The position numbers and the translations under genes were made by a program. Under the pieces are notes generated by a model, which had not been told where the DNA came from, ran no database searches, and was given only the letters and a program-made list of their open reading frames with translations. 64,000 bases of DNA, taken from Eledone cirrhosa (lineage: Eukaryota). Where the stretch lies: assembly GCA_964016885.1 (NCBI GenBank), contig OZ024741.1, positions 270,320,001 through 270,384,000 of the forward strand, read 5' to 3'. This document shows, one piece after another, positions 2,234 to 54,800 of the stretch; within the stretch, counting starts at the first letter, position 1; each line of letters starts with the position of its first letter.

Positions 2234-2276
2234 AAATGTATATATATATGTATGAATAAATGTATATATATATATG

Positions 2277-2936
2277 TAAATGAAAGGTAGAGTTAACTCA
2301 TACTGAAACCCTGTAATTAACAAGCTCAAAGTATAAATACTGAGCATTATAACAATAACATATGTAGTAATAAACACAGTAAATTATGTGTCTAATATTA
2401 CGAGGGTTGAAGAACCACATTTGTTTGAAATATTTAACCATGAAGCAGACAGAATGATAAAAATAAAATAAAATTATACAGACCGCCTCAATAACAATTA
2501 CATCTCTCGGACAGATTAGGGATTAATCTGTTTCGCCCTGAGTGTGTTTGTAACAGATAATCCACGGGCATCATCAGCGAGAGAATCTGATTAAATGCGA
2601 CAAACACCTATATTAACGTTCACACAGAAAAATGAATTCTTCACCTCGTGTGCCGTAAGTCAAAAGTGGTGTGAGTGGATTGGGCAGAAATAACAGAAAT
2701 AACAGTCCAACACACGCAACTTTATAGGTTTACCTAGGGAGGGAGCCGAAATATAAATGAAAGGTAGAGTTAACTCATACTGAAACCCTGTAATTAACAA
2801 GCTTAAAATATAAATACTGAGCATTATAACAATAACATATGTAGTAATAAACACAGTAAATTGTGTGTCTAATATTACGAGGGTTGAAGAACCACATTTC
2901 TTTGAATATTTAACCATGAAGCAGACAGAATGATAA
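2277..2936 (-). mobile_element. Penelope-like pLTR/retrozyme-type element, about 1.4 copies of a 477-bp unit
   Basis: Direct repeat 2277-2460 / 2754-2936, (TA)n on both flanks, hammerhead fold inside. Confidence 0.7.
2503..2584 (-). ncRNA. Canonical type I hammerhead ribozyme
   Basis: UCUCUCG-CUGAUGA-U-GCCC..GGGC-GAA-ACAGAUUA(AUCCC)UAAUCUGU-C/CGAGAGA: 7-bp stem I, 8-bp stem III, GUC cleavage triplet. Confidence 0.88.
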
Positions 2937-3048: not shown

Positions 3049-4290
3049 CCACACTGTAAAGTGGTCATGTAGGTGTCACGACAAAAGCACCCAGCACACA
3101 CTGTAAAGTGGTCCTGTAGGTGTCACGACAAAAGCACCCAGCACACACTGTAAAGTGGTCGTGTAGGTCTCACGACAAAAAGCACCCATCCCACACTGTA
3201 AAGTGGTCATGTAGGTGTCACGACAAAAAGCACCCAGCACACATTGTAAAGTGGTCATGTAGGTGTCACGACAAAAAGCACCCATCCCACACTGTAAAGT
3301 GGTCGTGTAGGTGTCACAACAAAAAGCACCCAGCACACACTGTAAAGTGGTCATGTAGGTGTCACGACAAAAGCACCCAGCACACACTGTAAAGTGGTCA
3401 TGTAGGTGTCACGACAAAAGCACCCAGCACACACTGTAAAGTGGTCGTGTAGGTGTCACGACAAAAAGCACCCATCCCACACTGTAAAGTGGTCGTGTAG
3501 GTGTCACAACAAAAGCACCCAGCTCACACTGTAAAGTGGTCATGTAGGTGTCATGACAAAAGCACCCAGCACACACTGTAAAGTGGTCCTGTAGGTGTCG
3601 TGACAAAAAGCACCCACCACACACTGTAAAGTGGTCATGTAGGTGTCACGACAAAAGCACCCAGCACACACTGTAAAGTGGTCATGTAGGTGTCACGACA
3701 AAAGCACCTATCCCACACTGTAAAGTGGTCGTGTAGGTGTCACAACAAAAGCACCCAGCTCACACTGTAAAGTGGTCGTGTAGGTGTCATGACAAAAAGC
3801 ACCCAGCACACACTGTAAAGTGGTCCTGTAGGTGTCGTGACAAAAAGCACCCACCACACACTGTAAAGTGGTCATGTAGGTGTCACAATAAAAGCACCCA
3901 CCACACACTGTAAAGTGGTCATGTAGGTGTCACGACAAAAAACACCCAGCTCACACTGTAAAGTGGTCATGTAGGTGTCACAATAAAAGCACCCAGCACA
4001 CACTGTAAAGTGGTCCTGTAGGTGTCGTGACAAAAAGCACCCAGCACACACTGTAAAGTGGTCATGTAGGTGTCACGACAAAAAGCACCCAGCACACACT
4101 GTAAAGTGGTCATGTAGGTGTCACAACAAAAGCACCCAGCACACACTGTAAAGTGGTCGTGTAGGTGTCACAACAAAAAACACCCAGCACACACTGTAAA
4201 GTGGTCATGTAGGTGTCACAACAAAAGCACCCAGCACACACTGTAAAGTGGTCGTGTAGGTGTCACGACAAAAATTACCCAGCACACCTG
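3049..4290 (+). repeat. 47-48 bp tandem satellite (about 26 copies) inside an RTE 3' UTR that ends in (GAT)n at about 4450
   Basis: Unit cacactgtaaagtggtcatgtaggtgtcacgacaaaagcacccagca; runs directly into the RTE terminal motif aagggcatcc...ggacgttaaacgatgatgat. Confidence 0.95.
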
Positions 4291-4879
4291 TAAATGTGGT
4301 TGGCGTTAGGAAGGGCATCCAGCCATAGAAACCAAGTCAGAAACAGTTCTGTATGAGCAAGGCACGGTCACCTGATCCGACTTGCCTGTAATGGGACAAC
4401 TTGTATAACCCATGCTAGAGTGGAAAATGGACGTTAAACGATGATGATGATATGTATGTATAAATGTGTATATATGTATGTATAAATGTATATATATATA
4501 TATATATATGTATGTATAAGTGTATATATGTGTGTATGTATATATGTGTATTTATGGTTGTTTTCCTTTTTATGGTATGTTTAATATAGGTAGAATATAT
4601 TTCCTCACAGTGTACAATATATTGTCTACATCAATTTTTGCTATTTGTCTGCTCCGTTATGTGTGTTAATATGGGTTTAATATACTACTAAATGGTTTAA
4701 GATGATTAAATAATTGTGAACCATGGTATTTATAACTAAGTCATAATATTCTGTGTTATTTGTGCTGCTCCAGCCAGTAACTGGTCAAGGTTAGTTTGGT
4801 TTTGTGGTATTCACTTGCCTTTTTTTCTTTTCAATGATGGGTGGGGTTATAAAAGAAGTAATTTCACATGTCCTATCTT

Positions 4880-8900: not shown

Positions 8901-9282
8901 TTTTTTAAAAATACTTATCAAATGATCTAGCAGTTCAACAAAGTGCAATTGATAAAATAAATACCAAACTAAAGCAAGTACTGTTGTCAATGTAGCAATC
9001 CCAGAATGGTTTCAGAACTAAATAACACACACACACACACACACTTTTATTGGTGTATGTGTTATTTAGTTCTGTTTAGCCATCATGACTAAGGCCATGC
9101 TGGAGCACTGTCCTTTGTATACAAGTGTGTATATATATATATATATAATAATATTAAATGTGAAGACTAAAATCCAAAGAGGGCTCAATAAGGATAAATA
9201 TATATCAAATATATAAGAACCATAGAGCAAATATTTATTAAAATAACAGATTAAAGTTTAAGCAAAGAATTGCTGCTTTCAC

Positions 9283-9320
<38 letters not shown>

Positions 9321-9324
<4 letters not shown>

Positions 9325-10660
9325 GGTACGGTGGGACACACCATGGTCACCCGGATAGTCAACCAAGTCATACAGAATAGGGTTGTTCCGAAGGACTGGC
9401 GTAGCAGCATTATCGTTAACTGTTATAAGGGTAAAGGAGATGCCCTAGATAGGAGTAACTATAGAGGCATTAAATTAATCGACCAGGTCATGAAGGTCAC
9501 GGAAAAAGTAATAGCGCAACTAATCAGAGAGCGAATTGATCTAGATGAAATGCAGTTCGGGTTTGTGTCAGGGAAAAGTACCACAGACGCTCATTTCATT
9601 GTACGACAACTACAGGAGAAGTACCTAGCTAAAAGTAAACCCCTATACTTAGCTTTCGTCGACTTGGGAGAAGGCCTTCGACAGAGTCCCCCGTTCCATT
9701 ATCTGGTGGGCTCTTAGAAAACTAGGTGTTGATGAATGGCTTGTGAGAGCTATACAAGCCATGTATAAAGAAACAGTCAGCAAGGTTAGAATTAACAACG
9801 AATATAGTGAAGAGTTTAGTGTAAAAGTTGGTGTTCATCAGGGCTCTGTTCTTAGCCCCCTACTATTTATTATTGCCCTCCAGACTATAACAGTGGAGTT
9901 CAAGACCGGCTGCCCATGGGAACTCCTATACGCAGATGATCTAACGCTCATAGCTGAATCAATGGCCGACCTAGAGAAGAAATTCCAAACATGGAAGCAC
10001 GGCCTAGAATCAAAAGGCCTTAAAATTAACCTGGCTAAGACTAAAGTTCTAGTTTGTAAGAAAGAAAATAAAGCGGCGGTCCCCTCCGGGAAGTGGCCAT
10101 GCGCAGAGTGTAGGAAAGGCGTAGGTAGAAATTCCATTTTGTGTCCCAAATGCAAAGTTTGGGTGCATAAAAGATGTAGTGGGATCACAGGTAAGCTAAC
10201 TAAGAACATACATTTTATATGTGGCCGGTGTTCTGGGGCAATAAGTAGCAGCAAGTGCCCACGGAATACTAGCTCTTTCAACTGCACAGAGGGTTCTATA
10301 GAAATAGTGGACAGCTTCCGTTACCTGGGTGACAAAATCAGCAGTGGGGGAGGGTGCTCTGAAAGTACAGTAGCTAGAGTCAGAACTGGGTGGAAAAAGT
10401 TCAGAGAGCTTATACCACTATTAGCCGCTAAAGGGTTCTCCCTAAAAATGAAAGGCAGGCTGTACGATGCCTGCATACGAACAGCAATGTTGCATGGCAG
10501 TGAGACCTGGGCATTGTGTGCAGAGGATATACGCAGACTCCGCTGGATGTGTAATAGTAATATACGTGAACGACAAAGCATAAACGAACTAAGGAAAAAA
10601 TTAGAAATAAGAGGGATCAGATGTTGTTTACTAGAGAAACGTTGATGATGATGATGATGA

Positions 10661-13781: not shown

Positions 13782-16700
13782 TTATCGGCCTGATATGCGA
13801 TGGGGCCCACCCACAGCCCCGGCGGACAGAATGGAGAAGGCGTTTCCCCGGAGGACGGCAAGGGAGACGCGCTGGAAAAGCCACTCCAACTCGCGGGGCT
13901 CACACCTGCGGCTGGCCAGCTCACCGCCTATGGTGGTGGGTAAGGAGGTAGCCCTGGGGCCGAGGACACCAGAAGTTTCCACTGCCAGAGGTACGACCGC
14001 AAACCTGTCGGAGAGCGACCGGTATTGGAGGAGTTTGGCCTCCTCAGCCCGACGTGCAGCAGAACCTGGGTTAGTCGCAGACTGCACCAGGTTGCGGCTG
14101 CAGAAAGTGTCGGTGCAAGTGGCATCTCAGACGGGAGGCTTGCCACCGCGGAACGGGAAGTTGGTCATGCCATCTGGCCTTTTGCCGTCCCCTCGATCCA
14201 GCCCCACCGGCTCGAGCTGGGAAGGGAAGCCCGCATCGTCCAAGCCATGCTTAATGACCTCCTTGAGGGCAGCATAGCATGGAATTCGGCCGGCACTGTG
14301 ACGACAGGAAAGCGGGTGGAGGCCGAAAAAGTCCACGGTGGAACCGCAGCGACATTGGTGTGGCTGGCAGATCCGGAGGCCGAGCCTCAGGGAAACGCCG
14401 ATGCGCAGGCTATGGTTGTCTAGCTGCGTGCCAGTGGAGAAGGAGGGCAGGGCATGGAGCCAGGCACCACTGTGGGGTTTGGAAGCCGCACGAAAACAAG
14501 CAAGGCGGTGCTGGTCGAGCTGGCGCGTGAGCCTGTCTGAGGCCAGGCTGCACTGGGTGGCATCCCAAGTGCGTTGGGGAGACTTGACGTCAACAGTGGG
14601 AGAAGGAGGAGGGACGTCTACTTGGCTAAGTCCCAGCCGGTCCCACGTCTCACGGGCGGCCTCGCGTTCTCTGAACACAGAGGGTTCTGTTGTGTTTTGA
14701 AGAACCCTGCTGACGAGGACGCGGCACAAAGTTACCGACGAAAGATACGCCGGCAAAGATAGTGAGATCGGAGACCGGAGGCCAAGGCCGCCATACCTGA
14801 CAGGTAAAGTGGCCTGTTGCCACCCTATGTCGTCAAACTTGACGTTGCATACCTCTTCGGCTGCTGCTCGGATACAAGTATCGAGGAGAGATGTCTGGGT
14901 GTAGCACGGAGCGCTGCAGAGGGTATAGAGGAGCTTCGGCATGGCGAAGCAGTTCCTCAGTAGAAAGAGAGCTGGGTGGCCGTCAATCAAGCCCAGTCGG
15001 CTTGTGAGAGTCTGGTGTTGTTGAAGCCTGGACCCGATGGTGAAGCGGATGGCTGGAGGGTGGATCGGTGACCCGAGGATGAGGACATCCTCTTTGGGGG
15101 TCACCTAAACCTGGTGGAGAATGGACCGCACGTCCAAGACCGAGGCTGCAAAGCTCGCAGCATTGAGGCTGACATTTACCACCTCCGATTTGACCTGGAG
15201 GCCGATTCCCGCCAGGGCAGGAACCACCGATTGTAGGTCATGGCAGACCTTCCGTACGGGCCCGCCCAATGTAGCATCATCCAGATACCAAACGTTGAGA
15301 GGGGCCGTGATACTCCGGGCGATGTGGTCATTACCAAGGGCGAATAGGAGGGGTTCCAAAGGGTCGCCCTGTTGGACCCCAGTAGCCGAGGGTATGACCG
15401 TATCAGCAACAAGGAGCATGCTCGGGGCTCCATACGACAGGTAGGCCAGCGAGTAAGCAGAGGGGGCTCGGCTGAGGCAGACCTCGAGCAGATGATCCCG
15501 GCGTAAAGAGTTGAAGGCATTCCTCATGTCAAGCTTGACAATGAGGTGCCTGGAGTCCCTGGATGCCAGTTCCGATGGGCAGCTGTTGAAGAACTGCCTG
15601 GTTGCATGAGCGGCCTCCTCACAGCCACCGGACACGCCGACATCCAGTTGCACCGGACTAAACTCCTCACCCAGTTCGTGTGTGACGGACTTGCAGATCA
15701 CCTTGGCAGCCAGCCTCCGGAAGACATTGCCCACAGCAATGTGGCGTATGCCACCCTCTTTCTTCCTGAGAGCGGTGAGGCTGGCCAAAAAAAGAGGCCT
15801 CGGGCGTAAGGGTCCAGGGCGCCATGGATGAGGCTATTGGTGAGCGTCACAATTGCACTCAGAAGGCGGCGCCCGGCCTCAGCGGAGAGGGGGGATATCA
15901 ACTCCTTGAGGTGGCCTGGTCGGAGACTATCAACACTTCCGCAGCTGCTAGCTGGGAAGGACCTGATGGCGGACATGATGTTTGCATCAGAAGCCACAAG
16001 GAGCAAGTGGGGGTCGGGTGTGAGTATAGGTCTGAGTTCAGTGGGTGGCTCAGGGTGTTTGAGTCGCAGAGCAGCCAGGACCTCCTCGGTGGATTGGAGG
16101 GCAGTGTCCTCTGACTGCGACCGAGACATCACTCATAAGCTTGGCGTTTACCTGGTCACTCAAACGCTTGGCGCTGGCCTCGGGGATGGAGGATAGAGGG
16201 TACCTGAGGGTGGGTTGTGTGGCGTCCCTGGGCACGCTTGGAATGTGCGCTCACCCAAAGGACGAGACATTGGCCTTGACGAAGGCTGCTGTTGACCGGC
16301 CGCCCCGGTCAGCGCCAGAGCTGGGGAGGCCGAGGGCGAGTGGGGCGAAATAGAACAGCCGCTCCCAGTCACTGGCTCGATTGGAGTCCAGGGCGCTCTC
16401 AATCGAGGAAGCGAGGGCATCGGCTACCGGCACCCGTGCCGCTCTCGGGATCCTGAGTGGGATCTTCCGGAGCTGCCTGAGCCGAGCGATGTTGACCAGC
16501 GAGGCTTGGGCGTCAGGCAAGCTCGCTGTCTTATCTGGTGGCGTGCCAGACGGCCGTGGCTGGGAAGACGTGGGGAAGAGGCAGCTCCTGCACCTCCACG
16601 CTGCGAGGGCATTGGAAGCTCGACGAGTCAAGCCAACGCAGGTGAGGTGGTGGAAGCAGCCACACCCCAAACAGTTCCGGCCCCTCTTCCGTCTGTTAGT

Positions 16701-28500: not shown

Positions 28501-29200
28501 CAAGGCAAATCAGTCTTGAAATTTAATTTGATGGAGAATGATGTCCATGTGTATGTGAAAGAATAGAACAGTTTTTCTCCAATCAACAACATAGTCCCCC
28601 AACCTCCTGGAAATAGTAGCCAAGTCTCCCACTGATCATGTTCTACAGTCATGAAAAAGAGAGGGAAGGACACATTTAATATAATGTAATCAGCAGTATA
28701 CGATGGTTGTGAAAAAAATGGAATGGTTATGGGTCAAATGCCTTCAAATATAAGTCTGCCTGATCAGAATTGACCTAAAACTAAACAGTGAGCGAACAAC
28801 ATAACCCTCTATATGATTGTTCCATTTGACAGAAATAGCAGCCAAATATCTTTAATATCTTAGAAAAATGAAGGGTACATTGAATAGTGTAATCCTAACT
28901 ATTCTTTCTTTTGTCCTGTAACTCTTGAGGGAGTTGTAGAGACACTGTATTGGCATAGGGTGTTTCTAGGGCACTTTTTAAACCTGGCAGAGCCCATCTT
29001 CTCTCCAGGTCTGAATACCACAAAGCATTCTATCCGACATTTTAACGACTCCGTCAATTCGCCGTTTAATCCTAACTGTTCTATGGTTGAAAAATAAACA
29101 AAAAGATATGGTGGTCATGTGGAATGCCTTCCATAATATATTTGCTCAGTCAGGAGCGACAAGGGGTTCAATGTCCTTACAAAAGGCACCATTTATATTA

Positions 29201-31583
29201 TGACAACCTCCCTAGTGTTAATCATAGGGAGGACTGTTCAGCTGTGCCAAGGACAAGACAACTTCCCTAGTTTTAGTGATAGGGAGGACTGTTCAGCTGT
29301 GCCAAGGACATGACAACTTCCCTAGTGTTAGTGATAGGGAGGACTGTTCAGCTGTGCCAAGGACATGACAACCTCCCTAGTGTTAATCATAGCGAGGACT
29401 GTTCAGCTATGCCAAGGACATGACAACTTCCCTAGTGTTAATGATAGGGAAGACTGTTCAGCTGTGCCAAGGACATGACAACCTCCCTAGTGTTAATGAT
29501 AGGGAGGACTGTTCAGCTGTGCCAAGGACATGACAACCTCCCTAGTGTTAATGATAGGGAGGACTGTTCAGCTGTGCCAAGGACATGACAACTTCCCTAG
29601 TGTTAATGATAGGGAAGACTGTTCAGCTGTGCCAAGGACATGACAACCTCCCTAGTGTTAATGATAGGGAGGACTGTTCAGCTGTGCCAAGGACATGACA
29701 ACCTCCCTAGTGTTAATGATAGGGAGGACTGTTCAGCTGTGCCAAGGACATGACAACCTCCCTAGTGTTAATGATAGGGAGGACTGTTCAGCTGTGCCAA
29801 GGACATGACAACCTCCCTAGTGTTAATGATAGGGAAGACTGTTCAGCTGTGCCAAGGACATGATAACCTCCCTAGTGTTAGTGATAGGAAAGACTGTTCT
29901 GCTGTGCCAAGGACATGACAACCTCCCTAGTGTTAATGATAGGGAAGACTGTTCAGCTGTGCCAAGGACATGACAACCTCCTTAGTGTTAGTGATAGGGA
30001 GGACTGTTCAGCTGTGCCAAGGACATGACAACCTCCCTAGTGTTAGTGATAGGGAAGACTGTTCTGCTGTGTCAAGGACATGACAACCTCCCTAGTGTTA
30101 ATGATAGGGAAGACTGTTCAGCTGTGCCAAGGACATGACAACCTCCCTAGTGTTAATGATAGGGAAGACTGTTCAGCTGTGCCAAGGACATGACAACCTC
30201 CCTAGTGTTAGTGATAGGGAGGACTGTTCAGCTGTGCCAAGGACATGACAACCTCCCTAGTGTTAATGATAGGGAAGACTGTTCAGCTGTGCCAAGGACA
30301 TGACAACCTCCCTAGTGTTAATGATAGGGAAGACTGTTCAGCTGTGCCAAGGACATGACAACCTCCCTAGTGTTAGTGATAGGGAGGACTGTTCAGCTGT
30401 GCCAAGGACATGACAACCTCCCTAGTGTTAATGATAGGGAGGACTGTTCAGCTGTGCCAAGGACATGACAACCTCCCTAGTGTTAATGATAGGGAAGACT
30501 GTTCAGCTGTGCCAAGGACATGACAACCTCCCTAGTGTTAATGATAGGGAAGACTGTTCTGCTGTGCCAAGGACATGACAACCTCCCTAGTGTTAATGAT
30601 AGGGAAGACTGTTCAGCTGTGCCAAGGACATGACAACCTCCCTAGTGTTAATGATAGGGAGGACTGTTCAGCTGTGCCAAGGACATGACAACCTCCCTAG
30701 TGTTAATGATAGGGAAGACTGTTCAGCTGTGCCAAGGACATGACAACCTCCCTAGTGTTAGTGATAGGGAAGACTGTTCTGCTGTGCCAAGGACATGACA
30801 ACCTCCCTAGTGTTAATGATAGGGAAGACTGTTCAGCTGTGCCAAGGACATGACAACCTCCCTAGTGTTAATGATAGGGAAGACTGTTCTGCTGTGCCAA
30901 GGACATGACAACCTCCCTAGTGTTAATGATAGGGAAGACTGTTCAGCTGTGCCAAGGACATGACAACCTCCCTAGTGTTAATGATAGGGAGGACTGTTCA
31001 GCTGTGCCAAGGACATGACAACCTCCCTAGTGTTAATGATAGGGAAGACTGTTCAGCTGTGCCAAGGACATGACAACCTCCCTAGTGTTAGTGATAGGGA
31101 AGACTGTTCTGCTGTGCCAAGGACATGACAACCTCCCTAGTGTTAGTGATAGGGAAGACTGTTCTGCTGTGCCAAGGACATGACAACCTCCCTAGTGTTA
31201 GTGATAGGGAGAACTGTTTAGCTGTGCCAAGGACATGACAACCTCCCTAGTGTTAATGATAGGGAAGACTGTTCAGCTGTGCCAAGGACATGACAACCTC
31301 CCTAGTGTTAATCATAGCGAGGACTGTTCAGCTGTGCCAAGGACATGACAACCTCCCTAGTGTTAATCATAGCGAGGACTGTTCAGCTGTGCCAAGGACA
31401 TGACAACCTCCCTAGTGTTAATCATAAGGAGAACTGTTCAGTTTTGCCAAGGACATGATAACCTCCCTAGTGTTAATCATAGGGAGGACTGTTCAGCTGT
31501 GCCAAGGACATGACAACCTCCCTTGTGTTAGTGATAGGGAGGACTGTTTAGCTGTGCCAAGGACATGACAATCTCCCTAGTGT
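29201..31583 (+). repeat. 55-bp tandem satellite, about 43 copies
   Basis: Unit gacaacctccctagtgttaatgatagggaggactgttcagctgtgccaaggacat; no spacers. Confidence 0.97.
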
Positions 31584-31778
31584 TGGTGCCACAGTAGAAT
31601 GCGAGGATGGTGAGAGGTCCCACATAAATACCTGCCACACTGTGACTAGCAGGAATAACAGACATTAAATGATGATGATGACTTATATTTCTTATATTTT
31701 CTTTTCTTTTATCTGTTTTTCTTTTCATCTCCATCTTGTTTATATATATATATATATATATTTTCTAATTACTTTCAG

Positions 31779-40700: not shown

Positions 40701-42788
40701 AATTGATTGTCGTTTTAGTTTTAGTTTTTGCTTCCCTTTTTCTTTTTTCTTTTTTACCTCTCTTTTATGCGTTTATATTTGTGTTAATCAACGATATTAT
40801 ATTTATAATGTTAGGGGGTGAATTGGCAGTATCGGTAGGGGGTTGGACGCCATGCTTTCTAGCATAGTTACATCCCTTTACGGTTTGAGTTCAAATCCCG
40901 TCGAGGTTAACTTTGTCTTTCATCCTTACGGGGTCAATAAAATAAAGTACCTGCAATGTACAATGTGCTGGCCTTGGGCCAAAAGTAGAAACAATTATAT
41001 TTATAATGTTATTTATACAACTGTTGAGGAAGGTGGGGTGGGTGTTGCTGGCCATTCTGCTGGAATACTTTTGCAGTCTTGACCGTGAGGTGCAGCCCCA
41101 ATACTGCCGCACCCTAGGCCTAGAGCCCCCTCCTTTCCTCCTCCCATTCTTCTGTGGCCCTAGAGCCTTTGCCTTTCTTTTCCGTTTTCATTACCACAAA
41201 AGACACTTGTATTTTTTACAATAAAACATTTGTCATTTATGTATCCGGTATGTTAGAGCAAAAAAAAAAAAAACTATTATAAATATAATATTGAGATAAG
41301 TATTTACAGATCTAGTCAACCCATTCTAGCATGTTAAAAAACTAACATTATAACAATAGCAATAATTGTTTCTACATTAGGCACAAGGCCAGCAAATACC
41401 CAGTGCATTACTGGTACTTTATTTTATCGACCCCGTAAGGATGAAAGGCAAAGTTAACCTTGGCGGGATTTGAACTCAGAATGGCAAGTGCCGTAACTCT
41501 ATACGTCAAAGCATGGCGTCCGACCCTCTACCGATACTGCCAATTCACCGCCCTATAACAATAGCAATAATTGTTTCTACTTTAGGCACAAGGCCAGCAA
41601 TTACCAGTGCATTACTGGTACTTTATTTTATCGACCCCGTAAGGATGAAAGGCAAAGTCAACCTCGGCGGGATTTGAACTCAGATGGTAAAGGGACGTAA
41701 CTATGCTGGAAAGCATGGCGTCCGACCCTCTACCGATACTGCCAATCCACCGCCCTTTATATAACAATAGCAATAATGATGACAATACTTCTTTCACTTG
41801 CACAAATCTTCTGTATTGTTTGTGTTTGTTTCCTCTATCTCTATATTATCCTCTGTTTATTGAATAATACCACGTAATCATCCTATCTGCATCTATGCCC
41901 ACTATTTTGTCTGTTTACAAAGACTTCTCAGTTAGTCATTCAACCAATAAGTCTATTCTCACCCAAATCTTACTCTAGAGTTACGGCCCTTTGTGTTCTG
42001 AGTTCAAATCCTACCGAGGTTAATTTTGCCAATCATCCTTACGGGGTCGATAAAATAAAGTACCAGTAATGCATTGGGGTAATTGCTGGCCTTGTGCCAA
42101 AAGTAGAAACAATTATTATAGACTGTCCCTGCTATTTTTAGAGGATATGATTTCCAGTGAGTTTCAGCTGCTTGAAGCTAACATATCAAAGGGAGTTTAT
42201 CCGGTTGTAAGATTGTATATATATATATATATATATGTAAGGTTATATTTAAAATTGTTGGGTTACAACTAGTAAATATTTATAACTGATATAAAAGCAC
42301 TCGACAAATATTTGGAGTATATTTACAATATTAAATAAATGGAAAACTATATTTATAAAACCATATCTATTTCATTATATATATTTCGGGGATATCATAT
42401 TAACAATATGCTATGCCTTCATCAGACAAAATACAATATAAACAGTTTTATAGATAAATATATTCGAGATACCGTAATAAACATCAACTTCATTTGAAGA
42501 GGTTTACTCTAGCAGTGAAAATACAGAGAGAAAGAAAAAAAGAGAGAAAGAAAAGAGGGAAAAACGAAAGAAAGAAAGACAAAACGAAGAAAAGGAAGAA
42601 AAAGAAAAAGAAGAAATGCATGGAACAAAATAGAGAGATGGAAAAATAGATAAAGTGAAGAGCTTCATGTAAAGAGACAGAAAGATATATATATATATAG
42701 AGAGAGAGGAAATAGAGATAGATACATATATATATATAGAAAATTAGGTAGTGGGAGGTCATTTTGAGTAAGTGTATCAATGATACAT

Positions 42789-48800: not shown

Positions 48801-51800
48801 TCAATTTCCGGTGATCCCAATTCCCGGTGAGACCATGTTTTGCCATGTCCATTAACAAGTCACAAGGGCAAACATTGTTGGTGACGGGCATCCATTTGGG
48901 GGAGCCATGCTTCTCCCATGGCCAACTTTATGTTGCCTGTTCCCGCTTAGGGAGCAGGAATGGACTTTTTGCTTACACTCCTCAAGGGATGACATGCAAT
49001 ATCATCTACAAAGAGGTGCTATAGATGTTCGTGCAAGTGTAGGTGTTGGAGCTATGTTGTATGGAAAACTATTTCCTGGTAGGGTCACCCATGGCGGACA
49101 GATCTGACACCCAGCGGCATCAGGGCCACCATCTTGCAACTTTGGTCTGCTAAATTCGCTATTGGAAGATTATTAACCCATCATTGAATGCTAATTGGTT
49201 CGTAACTTTTAATAACCAGTTCAAGTGCTTTATGCACTTAATTGATAAGCTTATTCGCTTTCAAGCCGTGTTTACCTGTATGTAACTTTTCATAGCAAAT
49301 GAACAAACCCGAGCAACGCCGGGCAAAACTGCTAGTATATATATATATATATATATAAATACGCAAACACATGAAAACACCACAACCAAACACTAGCACA
49401 ATCCAAAACGAAACCACACAGACAACACACCACAACAACCTACGTGCCAGCTCCACACAGAATACGAACAACCGTCAACGTAACAACAAACCCATAACCC
49501 CCAACTGCAACTGCAAAAAGCGTGTAGAATGCCCATTGAACGGGGAGTGGCTTGTTAAAAACATTATTTACCGGTGCGATGTCACAGCTGGCCAAAAAAG
49601 TACTCCTACATAGGGGTGACCTCGACTACATTTAAGGAGCGCTGGTATAGCCACAAAAGCTCTTTCAACCACAAGCCCAAACGCTCCCAAACCAGACTAA
49701 CAGACTTGATCTGGGACCTCAAAGACAAGAACATGGGATACCAGATCAAATGGTCAGTTAAAAGACACGTGGCCCAACTCCCCAATGACAGAAACCACTG
49801 CAGGTTATGCCTGGCCGAGACGGCTGAGATCATTAAATTGAAATCGGCCATAAACTCGAGGTCTGACATAATAATAAACTGCAGACACACCAGGATGAGC
49901 ACTTTCTCCGCACAAACATTCGGTCGAGGGCCAGCCACTAACCCTGTCTCAACATAGACATAACCACCTTTGCTTTACCACACTGTCCCTCATCTCACTA
50001 TTTTTGTCTTCTCTAACATGTAACCCATTGTAATGTCAGATCTTGTAAATATCATGTTGCACCCATCACCCCCACCACCACCACCACACACATAACCATT
50101 CATCCACAACCATCAACAATACTTTGCCTGCCCAGACATTCGGCGCCAGGTGCCATTGACTAACCCTAAATCGAATTCGACATACCTTACCACACCATCT
50201 CTCATTTCAGTACCATTGTTTTCCCTGTGTCTTCTCTGTCAGTTTTTAAGTTGTAACCCATCGTAACATTTGATCCTGTAAAAATCATGTTGCACATGTG
50301 CATATATATATATCAAAAAACGTGACAATCACCTGATCACCTATAGATCCGGGGAACACACAAGCCAGGTAGATTATATCCTTACCAGAAGACGTGACAG
50401 AGTGTCTGTTGTAAACACTAAATCCCTCCCCCATGAAGAATGCACCTCCCAACATAGACTGATAATTAGCGACCTCATAGTCAGGACGAGACGTACTCGA
50501 CAACAGAAGAGGACTATCCTCAGGAGGAAAATATGGAAGCTAAAGGACCCCACAGCCAGGAATAAATTTCAAAGCATATTACTTGATGCTTTCGACAGTA
50601 AGGAAGAACATTTAGAGTCGGACAATATAGAGGGAGAGTGGGAATTTCTGAAAGCAAACCTGCTGTTGGCGACAGACGAAGTCTGTGGCTGGAGCAGGCC
50701 TGTAGGCAGGAGGAGAGTAACATGGTGGTGGAACAGTAAGGTGGAGGGGTCAATTAAGGCCAAAAAGCAGGCTTGGAAAGTATGGCGGGATGGGGGAAGT
50801 AGAGAGGACTATCAAGTGGCCAGGAGGGAAGCTAGGAGACAAGTGTACTTAGCAAGAAGGGAAGCTGAGGAAAGAAAGTTCAAGCATGTTCTACAACGCG
50901 ATGACCAAAAACGTGAGGTGTTCAGGATTGCTAGGCAATGCGTCAAGGAAAACCGTGATATTGTCGGGGAGAAGTGTGTACTAAACGACGATGGCACACT
51001 TGCCATCACCGACGCTGATAAGAAGGTAGCTTGGAAGTGTCACTATGAAAGGCTACTAAATGAGGAGAATAATTGGGAGAAAGGCAGTCTCCCCCATATC
51101 GACCCAATAGAGGGACCAGCAGTGTTAGTCGAGGGGAGTATAATAAGTAAGGCAATCAAGGATATGAAGACTGGTAAGGCGGCTGGGCCTTCGGAAATAG
51201 TTGCTGAGATGCTGAAGGCATCTGGCACGGTGGGACACACCATGGTCACCCGCATAGTTAACCAAGTCGTACAGAATGGGGTTGTTCCGAAGGACTGGCA
51301 TAGCAGCATCATCGTTAACTGTTATAAGGGTAAAGGAGACGCCCTAGATAGGAGTAACTATAGAGGCATTAAATTAATCGACCAGGTCATGAAGGTCACG
51401 GAAAAAGTAATAGCGCAACTAATCAGAGAGAGAATTGACCTAGATGAAATGCAGTTCGGGTTTGTGTCAGGCAAAAGTACCACAGACGCTCTTTTCATAG
51501 TACGACAACTACAGGAGAAGTACCTAGCTAAAGGTAAACCCCTCTACTTAGCTTTTGTCGACTTGGAGAAAGCCTTCGACAGAGTCCCCCGCTCCATTAT
51601 CTGGTGGGCTCTTAGAAAACTAGGCGTTGACGAATGGCTTGTTAGGGCTATACAAGCCATGTATAAAGAAACAGTCAGCAAGGTTAGAATTAACAACGAA
51701 TATAGTGAAGAGTTTAGCGTAAAAGTTGGCGTCCATCAGGGCTCTGTTCTCAGTCCACTACTATTTATTATTGCCCTTCAGGCTATAACAGAGGAGTTCA

Positions 51801-54800
51801 AGACAGGCTGCCCATGGGAACTCCTATACGCAGATGACCTGACACTCATAGCGGAATCAATGGCCGAGCTAGAGAAGAAATTCCAAACATGGAAGCACGG
51901 CCTAGAGTCAAAAGGACTTAAAATTAACCTGGCTAAGACCAAAGTACTAGTTTGTAGGAAAGAAAACAAGGCGGCGGTCCCTTCTGGGAAATGGTCGTGC
52001 TCGGTGTGTAGGAAAGGCGTAGGTAGAAACTCTATTTTATGTCCTAAATGCAAAGTATGGGTGCATAAAAGATGTAGTGGGATCACAGGTAAGCTAACTA
52101 AGAACATAGATTTTACATGTGGCCGGTGCTCTGGTGCAATAAGTAGCAGCAAGTGCCCACAAACTACTAGCTCTTTCAATTGCGCAGAGGGTTCTATAGA
52201 AATAGTGGACAGCTTCCGTTACCTGGGCGATAAAATCAGCAGTGGGGGAGGGTGCTCTGAAAGTACTGTAGCTAGAGTCAGAACTGGTTGGAAAAAGTTC
52301 AGAGAGCTTATACCACTATTAGCTGCTAAAGGGTTCTCACTAAAAATGAAAGGCAGGTTGTACGATGCCTGCATACGAACAGCAATGCTGCATGGCAGTG
52401 AGACCTGGGCATTGTGTGCAGAGGATATACGCAGACTAGAGAGGAACGAAGCTTGCATGCTCCGCTGGATGTGTAACAGTAATATACGTGAACGGCAAAG
52501 CATAAACGAACTAAGGAAAAAATTAGAGATAAGAGGGATCAGATGTTGTTTACTCGAGAGAAGGCTACGTTGGTATGGACACGTGATGCGCATGAAAGTC
52601 GATAGCTGTATAACAAAGTGCAGGGCAATAAAGATAGACGGTAGTCACGGAATAGGCAGACCTAGAAAAACCTGGGACGAGCTGATAAACTCCGACATCA
52701 CACACTTACACCTCTCCAAGACAATGTCACTGGACCGAGACCTTTGGCGGTACTCAGTAACAGAGAAGACCCGCCTTACCTAAATATATAGTAAAACCTA
52801 CTCCAGCCAGTAGGCATCTCTAACAAAATACACCCCGTCCCACCACCACCACCCCCACCCGATCCACACCACCCCGTTCTATGTAAAGTTATGTTGGTGC
52901 CGCGCCATCGAGGCCGAAACAAATGAGATCGTGTAGGTGTCACGACAAAAAAACACACAGTCCACGCTGTAATGTGGCCGTGTAGGCAACACGGTAAAAA
53001 CCTCCCAGACCCACACTGTAAATGTGGTTGGTGTTAGGAAGGGCATCCAACTGTGGAAAACCTGCCAGACAGTCCTATGTGAGCAAGACAATCACTCTTG
53101 CCTCAAGTGGGACTACCCCCGTCCAAACCCATGCAAGCGTGGAACACGGACGTTAAACGTTGATGATGATGATGATGATGATGATATATATATATAATAT
53201 ATATATATATATATACACAACAAGGCTCCTAACATTTTTATAGTATATGCTTTCATACACACTCCTTTTATGCTTTAACATCATTTTAGTGCTACTGCCA
53301 ATAATAATCATCATCATCATCATCATCGTTTAATGTCCATCTTCCATGCTAGCATGGGTTAGACGGGAATTGTCCCACTTGAGGCAAGATTGGTCGGGTG
53401 ACCGTGTCTCGCTTGTATAGGACTATCTGACAGGTTTTCTACGGCTGGATGCCCTTCCTAACACCAACCACATTTACAGTGTGGACTGGGATATTTTTAC
53501 CGTGTTACCTACATGGCCACATTACAGCGTGGACTGTTTTTTTTTGTTGTGACCTACACGACCTCATTAGTTTGGACTGGATGTTGTGGTACCAACATAA
53601 CTTTACAGAGAATGGGTGGTATATATATATATATACATTTCTATGGTGTAAAGTGATATTTAGTAGGAACCTTCTGTATGACATTTATGTGAAGTGAAGC
53701 ATGCAGGTTCTATTGTCTAGAAATGAAACTAAATACCAGTAATTTATAGGAGGTTATTATCACAAAACTCACATCGACGAGTGATGGCCATAGCAATTTA
53801 TTTGTGCCCTTAGCTCGGCCTTTTAGTTTTATGATGGTTAGAATCTTTGAATTTAATACCTGTATGTATAACTTTTCAAATCCAATTACTTGCGCCAAGC
53901 TAATTTGGATATGAAAAATTGGAGGGCAGGGTTGTGTGTATTCTAATATTTTGTGTATGAGGGGCTTCTCAAACCTGGAGTGCCCCGGGCCTCCAAAGGT
54001 CTAAATCCAACCCTGTGTGTGTGTTATAGTTGATAAAGGGGGGAAAGGTCCATACCAATCAAAGGTTATAGGTAAAAAGTAAAAGTGAAAAATCACAGAG
54101 GTATATTAAGAGATTATTTTTTGCTTTAATCCAACAATGAATAAATGAATAATTCTATAATTGTTGTATTACCAGTTTCTATTAGTTTGGAGAAGAAAGA
54201 TCTGGAAGTTGAAAGATCCCTCAGCCAGTAACAGATTTAAAGATATCTTACTCAACGCCTATACAGTAAAGAAGGACAGATATAAAGGCATTCAATATAG
54301 AAGAGCACTGAGAGTTTCTAAAAAATAACTTAATAAAGACAACAGACGAGATCTGTGGGTGGAGCAAGACCACAGAGAGAAGGAGAGTGACTTGGTGGTG
54401 GAACAATAAGGTAGATGAGGCAGTTAGTGAGGCAGTTACAGGAAAAGTACCTAACTAAAAGTAAGCCGCTCTACCTGGCATTTGTCGATCTGGAAAAAGC
54501 TTTCGACAGGGTGCCCCGTTCTATAATCTGGTGGGCTCTTAGATAACTAGGAGTAGATGAATGGCTTGTGAAGGCTGTACAAGCCATGTATAGGGCAGCA
54601 GTCAGCAAAGTTAGGGTTAACAATGACTATAGCAAGGAATTTAGCATACAGGTCGGTGTCCACCAGGGCTCTGTTCTTAGCCCGCTCCTGTTTATTATTG
54701 TATTGCAGGCTATAACAGAGGAGTTTAGACCAGATGCCCATAGGAACTTATGTATGCGGATGATCTTACACTTATAGCTGAATCTATGGTGGAACTAGAG

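Follow-up and report, generated by a model that had tools for sequence, protein, structure and literature searches.

Non-LTR retrozymes of metazoans have been described in coral, mussel and axolotl (Cervera and de la Pena 2020, PMC7229834) and in vertebrates (Li, Clavereau and Pollet 2026, bioRxiv 10.64898/2026.07.22.740005). In the former account, most metazoan retrozyme circles leave the ribozyme free to fold, with the exception of some mussel circles, and how the circles avoid cutting themselves was left open (PMC7229834). Penelope-like elements (PLEs) leave a recognisable signature at their insertion sites: (TA)n targets, copies that are partly tandem and have inverted arms, and a tail (PMC8557442). 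For the anole PLE, two internal reverse-transcription start sites have been reported to account for the tail, and insertion in vitro did not need ribozyme cleavage (PMC11167929). PLE hammerheads are described as carrying an extra base after A9, and a large stem III marks monomer-active variants in fungal and protist PLEs (PMC4209133). The mechanism of Penelope-type integration has so far been worked out only in part.

We analysed a 64-kb stretch of the Eledone cirrhosa genome, here called the window, which holds an insertion between two TA repeats. Our reading is that it is probably a decayed single-ribozyme insertion of a non-coding non-LTR retrozyme family, likely mobilised by the reverse transcriptase (RT) and GIY-YIG endonuclease of a PLE; the family would pass through a circular RNA and be held in check by a leader that switches the ribozyme off. 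The insertion has the following parts:

2277-2936, minus strand (the RNA sense): whole insertion, a single arm of one 477-bp unit and a 5′-truncated second pass, 1.39 units
2277-2753, minus strand: unit monomer, non-coding, 36% GC
2753/2754: unit junction, identical in all subfamilies examined
2754-2936, minus strand: second-pass (pLTR-like) partial repeat, corresponding to 2277-2460
2274-2280, minus strand: fixed 3′ end A, putative reverse-transcription start 1, fused to the TA target
2347-2369, minus strand: fixed 3′ end B, putative start 2
2202-2275: imperfect (TA)n target, 3′ flank
2937-2948: short (TA)n, 5′ flank, about 12 nt

The two passes, 2277-2460 and 2754-2936, are identical in 179 of 184 alignment columns at a spacing of 477, which bears out the sequence-only reading of a 477-bp unit present about 1.4 times between (TA)n. 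No ORF of at least 150 aa was found in the unit (2277-2753), and hence no RT and GIY-YIG ORF of the kind that defines an autonomous PLE. The ribozyme sits in the unrepeated part, leaving one core in 1.39 units, and with one ribozyme only the locus cannot itself release a monomer; it is a worn, ordinary single-ribozyme copy of a known class. To its left, positions 1985-2201 belong to a truncated member of a second abundant repeat (2668 candidates, copies 95-98% identical), which the microsatellite and the retrozyme insertion interrupt at a TA step. We considered and rejected an insertion inside a MITE with terminal inverted repeats: the left-flank repeat continues differently elsewhere (4 of 11 loci were informative), and for the same reason there is no clean empty site for the insertion.

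The ribozyme itself is built as follows, all on the minus strand:

2503-2584: predicted type I hammerhead, exactly one in the 477-bp unit
2584-2578 with 2509-2503: stem I, 7 bp
2577-2571: core CUGAUGA
2570: extra U between A9 and G10.1
2569-2566 with 2538-2535: stem II, 4 bp, closing a 27-nt loop II
2534-2531: GAAA
2523-2519: 5-nt loop III, closing stem III of 8 bp including A15.1-U16.1
2510|2509: predicted cut, following the GUC triplet

The conserved core (CUGANGA, GAAA and UH) is thus present with stems I-III in type I order, and the 7-bp stem I, the 8-bp stem III with its 5-nt loop and the GUC triplet are all where the sequence-only reading had placed them. A hammerhead descriptor with stems of at least 6, 4 and 6 bp matched once in the window and not at all in 150 dinucleotide-shuffled windows searched on both strands. 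The earlier description of a full canonical hammerhead holds for the complete stems and core, but 'canonical' is too strong a word because of the extra base after A9 and the unusually large loop II; the Rfam hammerhead models gave no match to 2503-2584 at the gathering score and none among nine matches up to E=10. The 101-nt hammerhead segment has a fold z-score of -1.6. Type-SGC (scrambled) hammerheads have their blocks in a non-circularly permuted order (PMC10085705). That assignment was rejected, as the block order C-G-S is that of type I, and so was a scrambled reading with loop II as substrate, in which the 3′ part of loop II does not pair with the strand beside C3.

The class is already known, a non-LTR retrozyme that is likely PLE-mobilised, and the variant feature is a long stem III combined with a leader-paired loop II. 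Like the metazoan non-LTR retrozymes as reported, the unit is non-coding with one type I hammerhead and less than 45% GC, copies range from monomers to short multimers, and PLEs occur in the same genome. Units of about 470-485 nt exceed the 170-400 nt given in PMC7229834 and fall inside the 51-972 bp given in bioRxiv 10.64898/2026.07.22.740005. Arrays are mostly of 1-1.5 units here, whereas long arrays are described for metazoan non-LTR retrozymes; stem III has 8 bp instead of the 1-2 bp described there, and the extra base after A9 and the 27-30-nt loop II with its complementary leader also set the family apart from those accounts. With EN+ PLEs (Neptune/Poseidon) the family shares partial tandem and inverted arms, (TA)n targets and two fixed 3′ ends with a tail (PMC8557442, PMC11167929), but it has no ORF and its tail measures about 75-90 nt where 30-40 are reported. 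The extra base between positions 9 and 10.1 and the G10.1-C11.1 pair recall PLE hammerheads; those of metazoan PLEs are described as minimal and dimer-type, whereas the full stem III here resembles the monomer-cleaving fungal and protist variants (PMC4209133). In plant LTR retrozymes and hammerhead viroids, too, a complementary strand is predicted to keep the ribozyme of the circular RNA blocked, although both have type III hammerheads and plant retrozymes have LTRs, a PBS and a PPT, in contrast to the type I hammerhead and PLE-type ends found here (PMC4918200, PMC7229834).

To describe the family, we searched the 3.0-Gb genome. With the unit as query we obtained 2017 first-look candidates, of which the best 40 were scored; full-length matches among these were 85-93% identical. 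Three exact core patterns gave 205, 250 and 646 matches against 0, 0 and 26 for their reversed controls, and of the 100 matches listed first among the 646, 91 were judged by eye to belong to the window's family. Genome-wide, the family has about 600 intact cores. About 200 distinct loci were fetched, and clustering of 108 near-full units resolved six subfamilies with at least three members which, with one older and one younger group, makes at least eight; their eight majority sequences lie 5-26% apart. In the youngest subfamily the extra base is A and the unit measures 472 nt; its copies reach 99.5% identity to the majority sequence. The window copy belongs to a small subfamily and differs by about 3% from that subfamily's majority sequence, and its ribozyme core and stems equal the majority sequence of the family. 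Four near-identical two-armed copies (L289-L292) lie within 240 kb at G000:C1:217.42-217.66 Mb and are probably part of a larger segmental repeat. A metagenome scan returned five matches, none with a stem III or a stem I complement by eye, which we took as chance. Among the literature matches listed for hammerheads or Penelope in octopus and for retrozymes in cephalopods, we found no published work on this repeat family. In three sequencing runs of unknown kind, all from one sample, only a high-copy repeat was visible, which is uninformative on expression.

The ribozyme is conserved above its flanks. Over the eight subfamily majority sequences, 0 of 13 core columns and 2 of 34 stem columns vary, both of the latter compatible with G-U pairing, against 99 of 214 flank columns (46%); because many loci were chosen by core patterns, core conservation is inflated, whereas most of these patterns covered neither the leader nor stem I nor the 3′ strand of stem III. 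Loop III varies in 5 of 7 columns and is reverse-complemented in two subfamilies (window 2519-2523) with its stem unchanged, a micro-inversion of the hairpin loop. In stems I-III, 96.5% of alignment cells are paired, and the changes between subfamilies are G-U compatible. Two-sided covariation above shuffles was found neither in the hammerhead stems nor in the leader helix introduced below (one pair each, within shuffles).

Loop II is fixed to an unexpected degree, apparently because a strand upstream of the ribozyme, the leader, is complementary to it. The elements of this predicted helix, again on the minus strand, are:

2589-2607: leader strand, 5-23 nt upstream of stem I, with predicted pairing to loop II
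2607-2600, 2597-2596 and 2593-2589: leader helix parts of 8 bp, 2 bp and 5 bp
2544-2562: partner strand of the leader within loop II, complementary at 15 of 19 positions

Across the eight subfamilies, 1 of 15 paired leader columns varies (G-U compatible), as do 0 of 15 paired loop II columns and 5 of 8 unpaired leader columns, with no compensatory change in the helix; for the paired leader positions p is about 0.001 with columns taken as independent. In 66 distinct copies, 95-97% of the helix cells pair. A duplex as stable as leader/loop II arose in 25 of 5000 shuffles and in 35 of 5000 random 45-mers from the window. The 5′ part of loop II also complements the 5′ strand of stem III, with a duplex of -8.8 kcal/mol compared with -15.4 kcal/mol for the leader. 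For the youngest subfamily an uninterrupted leader helix of 12 bp is predicted, which is also more stable (-18.8 vs -15.4 kcal/mol).

When the leader is included, the minimum-energy fold combines the leader helix with stem III at -28.5 kcal/mol, with a probability of 0.31 against 0.095 for the hammerhead; in constructs without the leader, the hammerhead fold has a probability of 0.16-0.19. The leader helix is ahead of the hammerhead in the circular folds of six of seven units, with probabilities of 0.19 vs 0.05 for the window copy and 0.93-0.94 vs at most 0.0004 for the youngest subfamily; the circle of one locus, L117, is the exception (helix 0.04, hammerhead 0.13). The leader is thus predicted to out-compete the active fold in most contexts examined, and the helix may act as an off-switch of the predicted ribozyme. 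This bears on the earlier expectation that the ribozyme should cleave as a monomer: stem III is long enough for a monomer fold, but cleavage would depend on context, as the leader is predicted to compete. The minus-strand segment 2490-2600, which had been singled out for transcription, leaves out most of the leader including the 8-bp helix part.

The same pairing could instead activate the ribozyme, as a tertiary pseudoknot bracing stems I and II, with no off-switch at all, a serious possibility to which we give a little less than an even chance. Watson-Crick pairing of loop II with the stem I side is a feature of pseudoknot-stabilised hammerheads (Perreault et al. 2011, PMC3088659); in that account, pseudoknots occur in about 40% of hammerheads and the gain in rate can exceed 100-fold. 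The 5-bp part of the helix adjoins the distal ends of stems I and II, as a brace would. Folding programs are blind to pseudoknots and make the two folds exclusive by construction, so the probabilities above do not decide between switch and brace. The published pseudoknot examples have 4-6 bp (PMC3088659), whereas the 15 of 19 positions here are predicted to be too long to coexist fully with stem II: the return linker to stem II has 5 nt (8 in older subfamilies) for a paired span of 19 positions, so that on geometry only, and barring a sharp bend in the helix, the full helix excludes stem II. The continuous and stronger helix predicted in the youngest subfamily also argues against a brace.

The insertions carry the marks of Penelope-type integration. 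Of 324 segment starts, 128 lie at unit position 10 or below and 151 at positions 74-96 (279 together), giving an A-to-B tail of about 75-90 nt, while the 5′ ends of segments are scattered with no fixed 5′ end. A set of 86 loci selected through their core pattern shows inverted arms in 61, a length above one unit in 34 and TA at one or both sides in 74. Back-to-back arm pairs number 99 in 177 loci; 24 have an unclassified end, and 65 of the 75 that can be classified combine an end A with an end B (p=3e-11 vs 50%). The family thus combines partial tandems and inverted arrangements with truncated 5′ ends, a tail between two 3′ ends and insertion into microsatellites, and the two fixed ends, the (TA)n targets and the back-to-back arms uphold the retrozyme/Penelope link that the initial reading had drawn. 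Hundreds of insertions in effect map two start sites and the two-armed product of this type of integration on a 480-nt substrate. In other copies a SINE-like repeat of about 190-200 bp, with A/B-box-like motifs by eye, lies directly behind fixed end B at unit position ~76-90 (L034, L035, L036, L045 and others; 22 locus ids, 16 deduplicated). No tRNA was called in the SINE-like repeat of L045. The region of fixed end B is an AT-rich target hot spot common to the SINE-like repeat and the family.

Arrays able to release a monomer occur, as 7 segments or loci in older subfamilies and at 8 of 24 loci, with up to 5 cores, in the youngest. The tandem copies that had been anticipated elsewhere therefore exist, but loci with two or more cores are a minority of the family. 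Repeats within a locus differ at 273 of 7683 nt (3.6%; 52 segments) and the inverted arms of one locus by 3.8% (71 pairs), while the divergence to the nearest other locus is 3.4%. Recurrent differences between first and second pass show no direction bias (34 vs 34 pairs). Since divergence within loci is about that between loci and there is no pass bias, the repeats must have been nearly identical when they were inserted and have decayed since. Such a pattern fits a circle read more than once, and also a homogeneous linear multimer. With a junction shared by all subfamilies and 5′ ends that are not fixed, the template was effectively cyclic, and on balance we lean towards a circular RNA. Folded as a circle, the unit has no extra structure relative to shuffles (z -0.8).

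In the cycle we propose, read-through transcripts of loci with two or more cores would be cut to unit length, about 470-480 nt, and the unit-length RNAs closed into circles. A PLE protein would nick (TA)n, and reverse transcription would begin internally from two sites separated by about 80 nt, one for each DNA strand, and continue past the ribozyme and across the junction of units up to its stopping point, to yield arms of 0.2-5.6 units. While the RNA serves as template, the leader/loop II helix would likely keep the ribozyme uncut (off state); in the on state stems I-II-III would form, possibly braced by part of the same helix. The leader helix is in this way a candidate answer to the question of how circles avoid self-cutting. 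A more specific scheme is a tentative proposal that we would not favour over doubt: the helix over 19 positions, which is tighter in the youngest subfamily, would keep a hammerhead able to act as a monomer switched off while it is part of the circle, so that the Penelope RT can copy round from two starts, and would let it go in nascent multimers. If true, a mobile element of a metazoan would possess a conformational switch like that of viroids, and the family would offer a small substrate for the study of PLE integration.

The template could also be linear. Loci of 1.x-mer or multimer length would then be transcribed by read-through, and the transcripts copied uncleaved and with template jumping, with no circles and with a ribozyme that is rarely active or protein-assisted. 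We find this rather unlikely, but several observations point to it. The anole PLE is reported to use mainly unprocessed RNA, and its ribozyme mutants still insert (PMC11167929); eight of nine predicted Xenopus retrozymes are reported without cleavage in vitro (bioRxiv 10.64898/2026.07.22.740005). In our family, 50 of 56 arms extend past the cut site and the frequency of ends increases beyond about one unit. Three 5′ ends fall within 1 nt of the cut, but ends do not pile up there (6 of 56 within 8 nt vs 4.0 expected, p=0.21; 2 of 36 in the youngest subfamily), so there is no clear genomic footprint of cleavage. Two sibling loci, L055 and L057, have two pass-specific differences in common, which fits a linear template. 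Against these stand the lack of a general pass bias, a junction that does not change even between subfamilies differing by up to 26%, the absence of a fixed 5′ end, and a ribozyme conserved far above its flanks. Variants common to the repeats of one locus, taken from 177 loci of older subfamilies, showed no A-to-G excess as a footprint of RNA editing (6 vs 3 of 40). The longest array, of 5.6 units (L282:2370-5031; G000:C1:42756869-42759530), has variants that alternate every second unit and a stem II change common to four of its five cores; the period of two suggests duplication of a two-unit block at the DNA level, or else a dimeric template, and DNA-level duplication may thus be a second route to longer arrays.

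Returning to mobilisation by a PLE, elements with RT and GIY-YIG domains are abundant in this genome (10596 candidates, of which the best 150 were scored); they are located in TA repeats and bear minimal hammerheads of their own. Compared with 50 GIY-YIG loci from this set, the unit gave low-complexity matches only and no real similarity. A partner PLE is likely, without a matching element among these 50. A 21-nt match in L081 (E 0.11) was rejected as a shared element, as there is no hammerhead there. Five loci (L151, L152, L159, L163 and L165) form a PLE family with long RT and GIY-YIG frames, of 938 aa in L151, and with a minimal hammerhead that has a U3-A8 core variant and a palindromic stem III. 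The Neptune/Nematis type is suggested for this family by a Cys motif that precedes the GIY-YIG domain.

We find it improbable that the unit represents no more than the pLTR, or terminal repeat, left by an autonomous PLE as 5′-truncated debris. The PLE-type hammerhead and insertion structure would suit such an origin, and PLE copies are described as mostly truncated (PMC8557442); yet in mapped loci the upstream sequence enters another unit or stops, with no shared coding sequence seen, and the unit is absent from all 50 GIY-YIG loci. A local tandem duplication or a chance motif without RNA function, to which the weak fold z-scores and the missing Rfam match might point, is very unlikely and largely refuted by the empty shuffled windows, the hundreds of dispersed copies, within-locus repeats as diverged as different loci and structure-specific conservation across subfamilies.

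Other repeats and frames share the window with the retrozyme insertion. A repeat at 41348-41777 is related to the SINE-like repeat found in family loci. Two minisatellites are present, one at 3050-4300 with a 47/48-bp unit repeated about 26 times inside a dispersed repeat, the other at 29200-31584 with a 55-bp unit repeated 43 times at 96% identity. Three reverse-transcriptase-like frames, which we take to be of LINE type, lie at 50282-52783 (minus strand), 9262-10645 (plus strand) and 14127-15833 (minus strand), and one of them is open for 833 aa.
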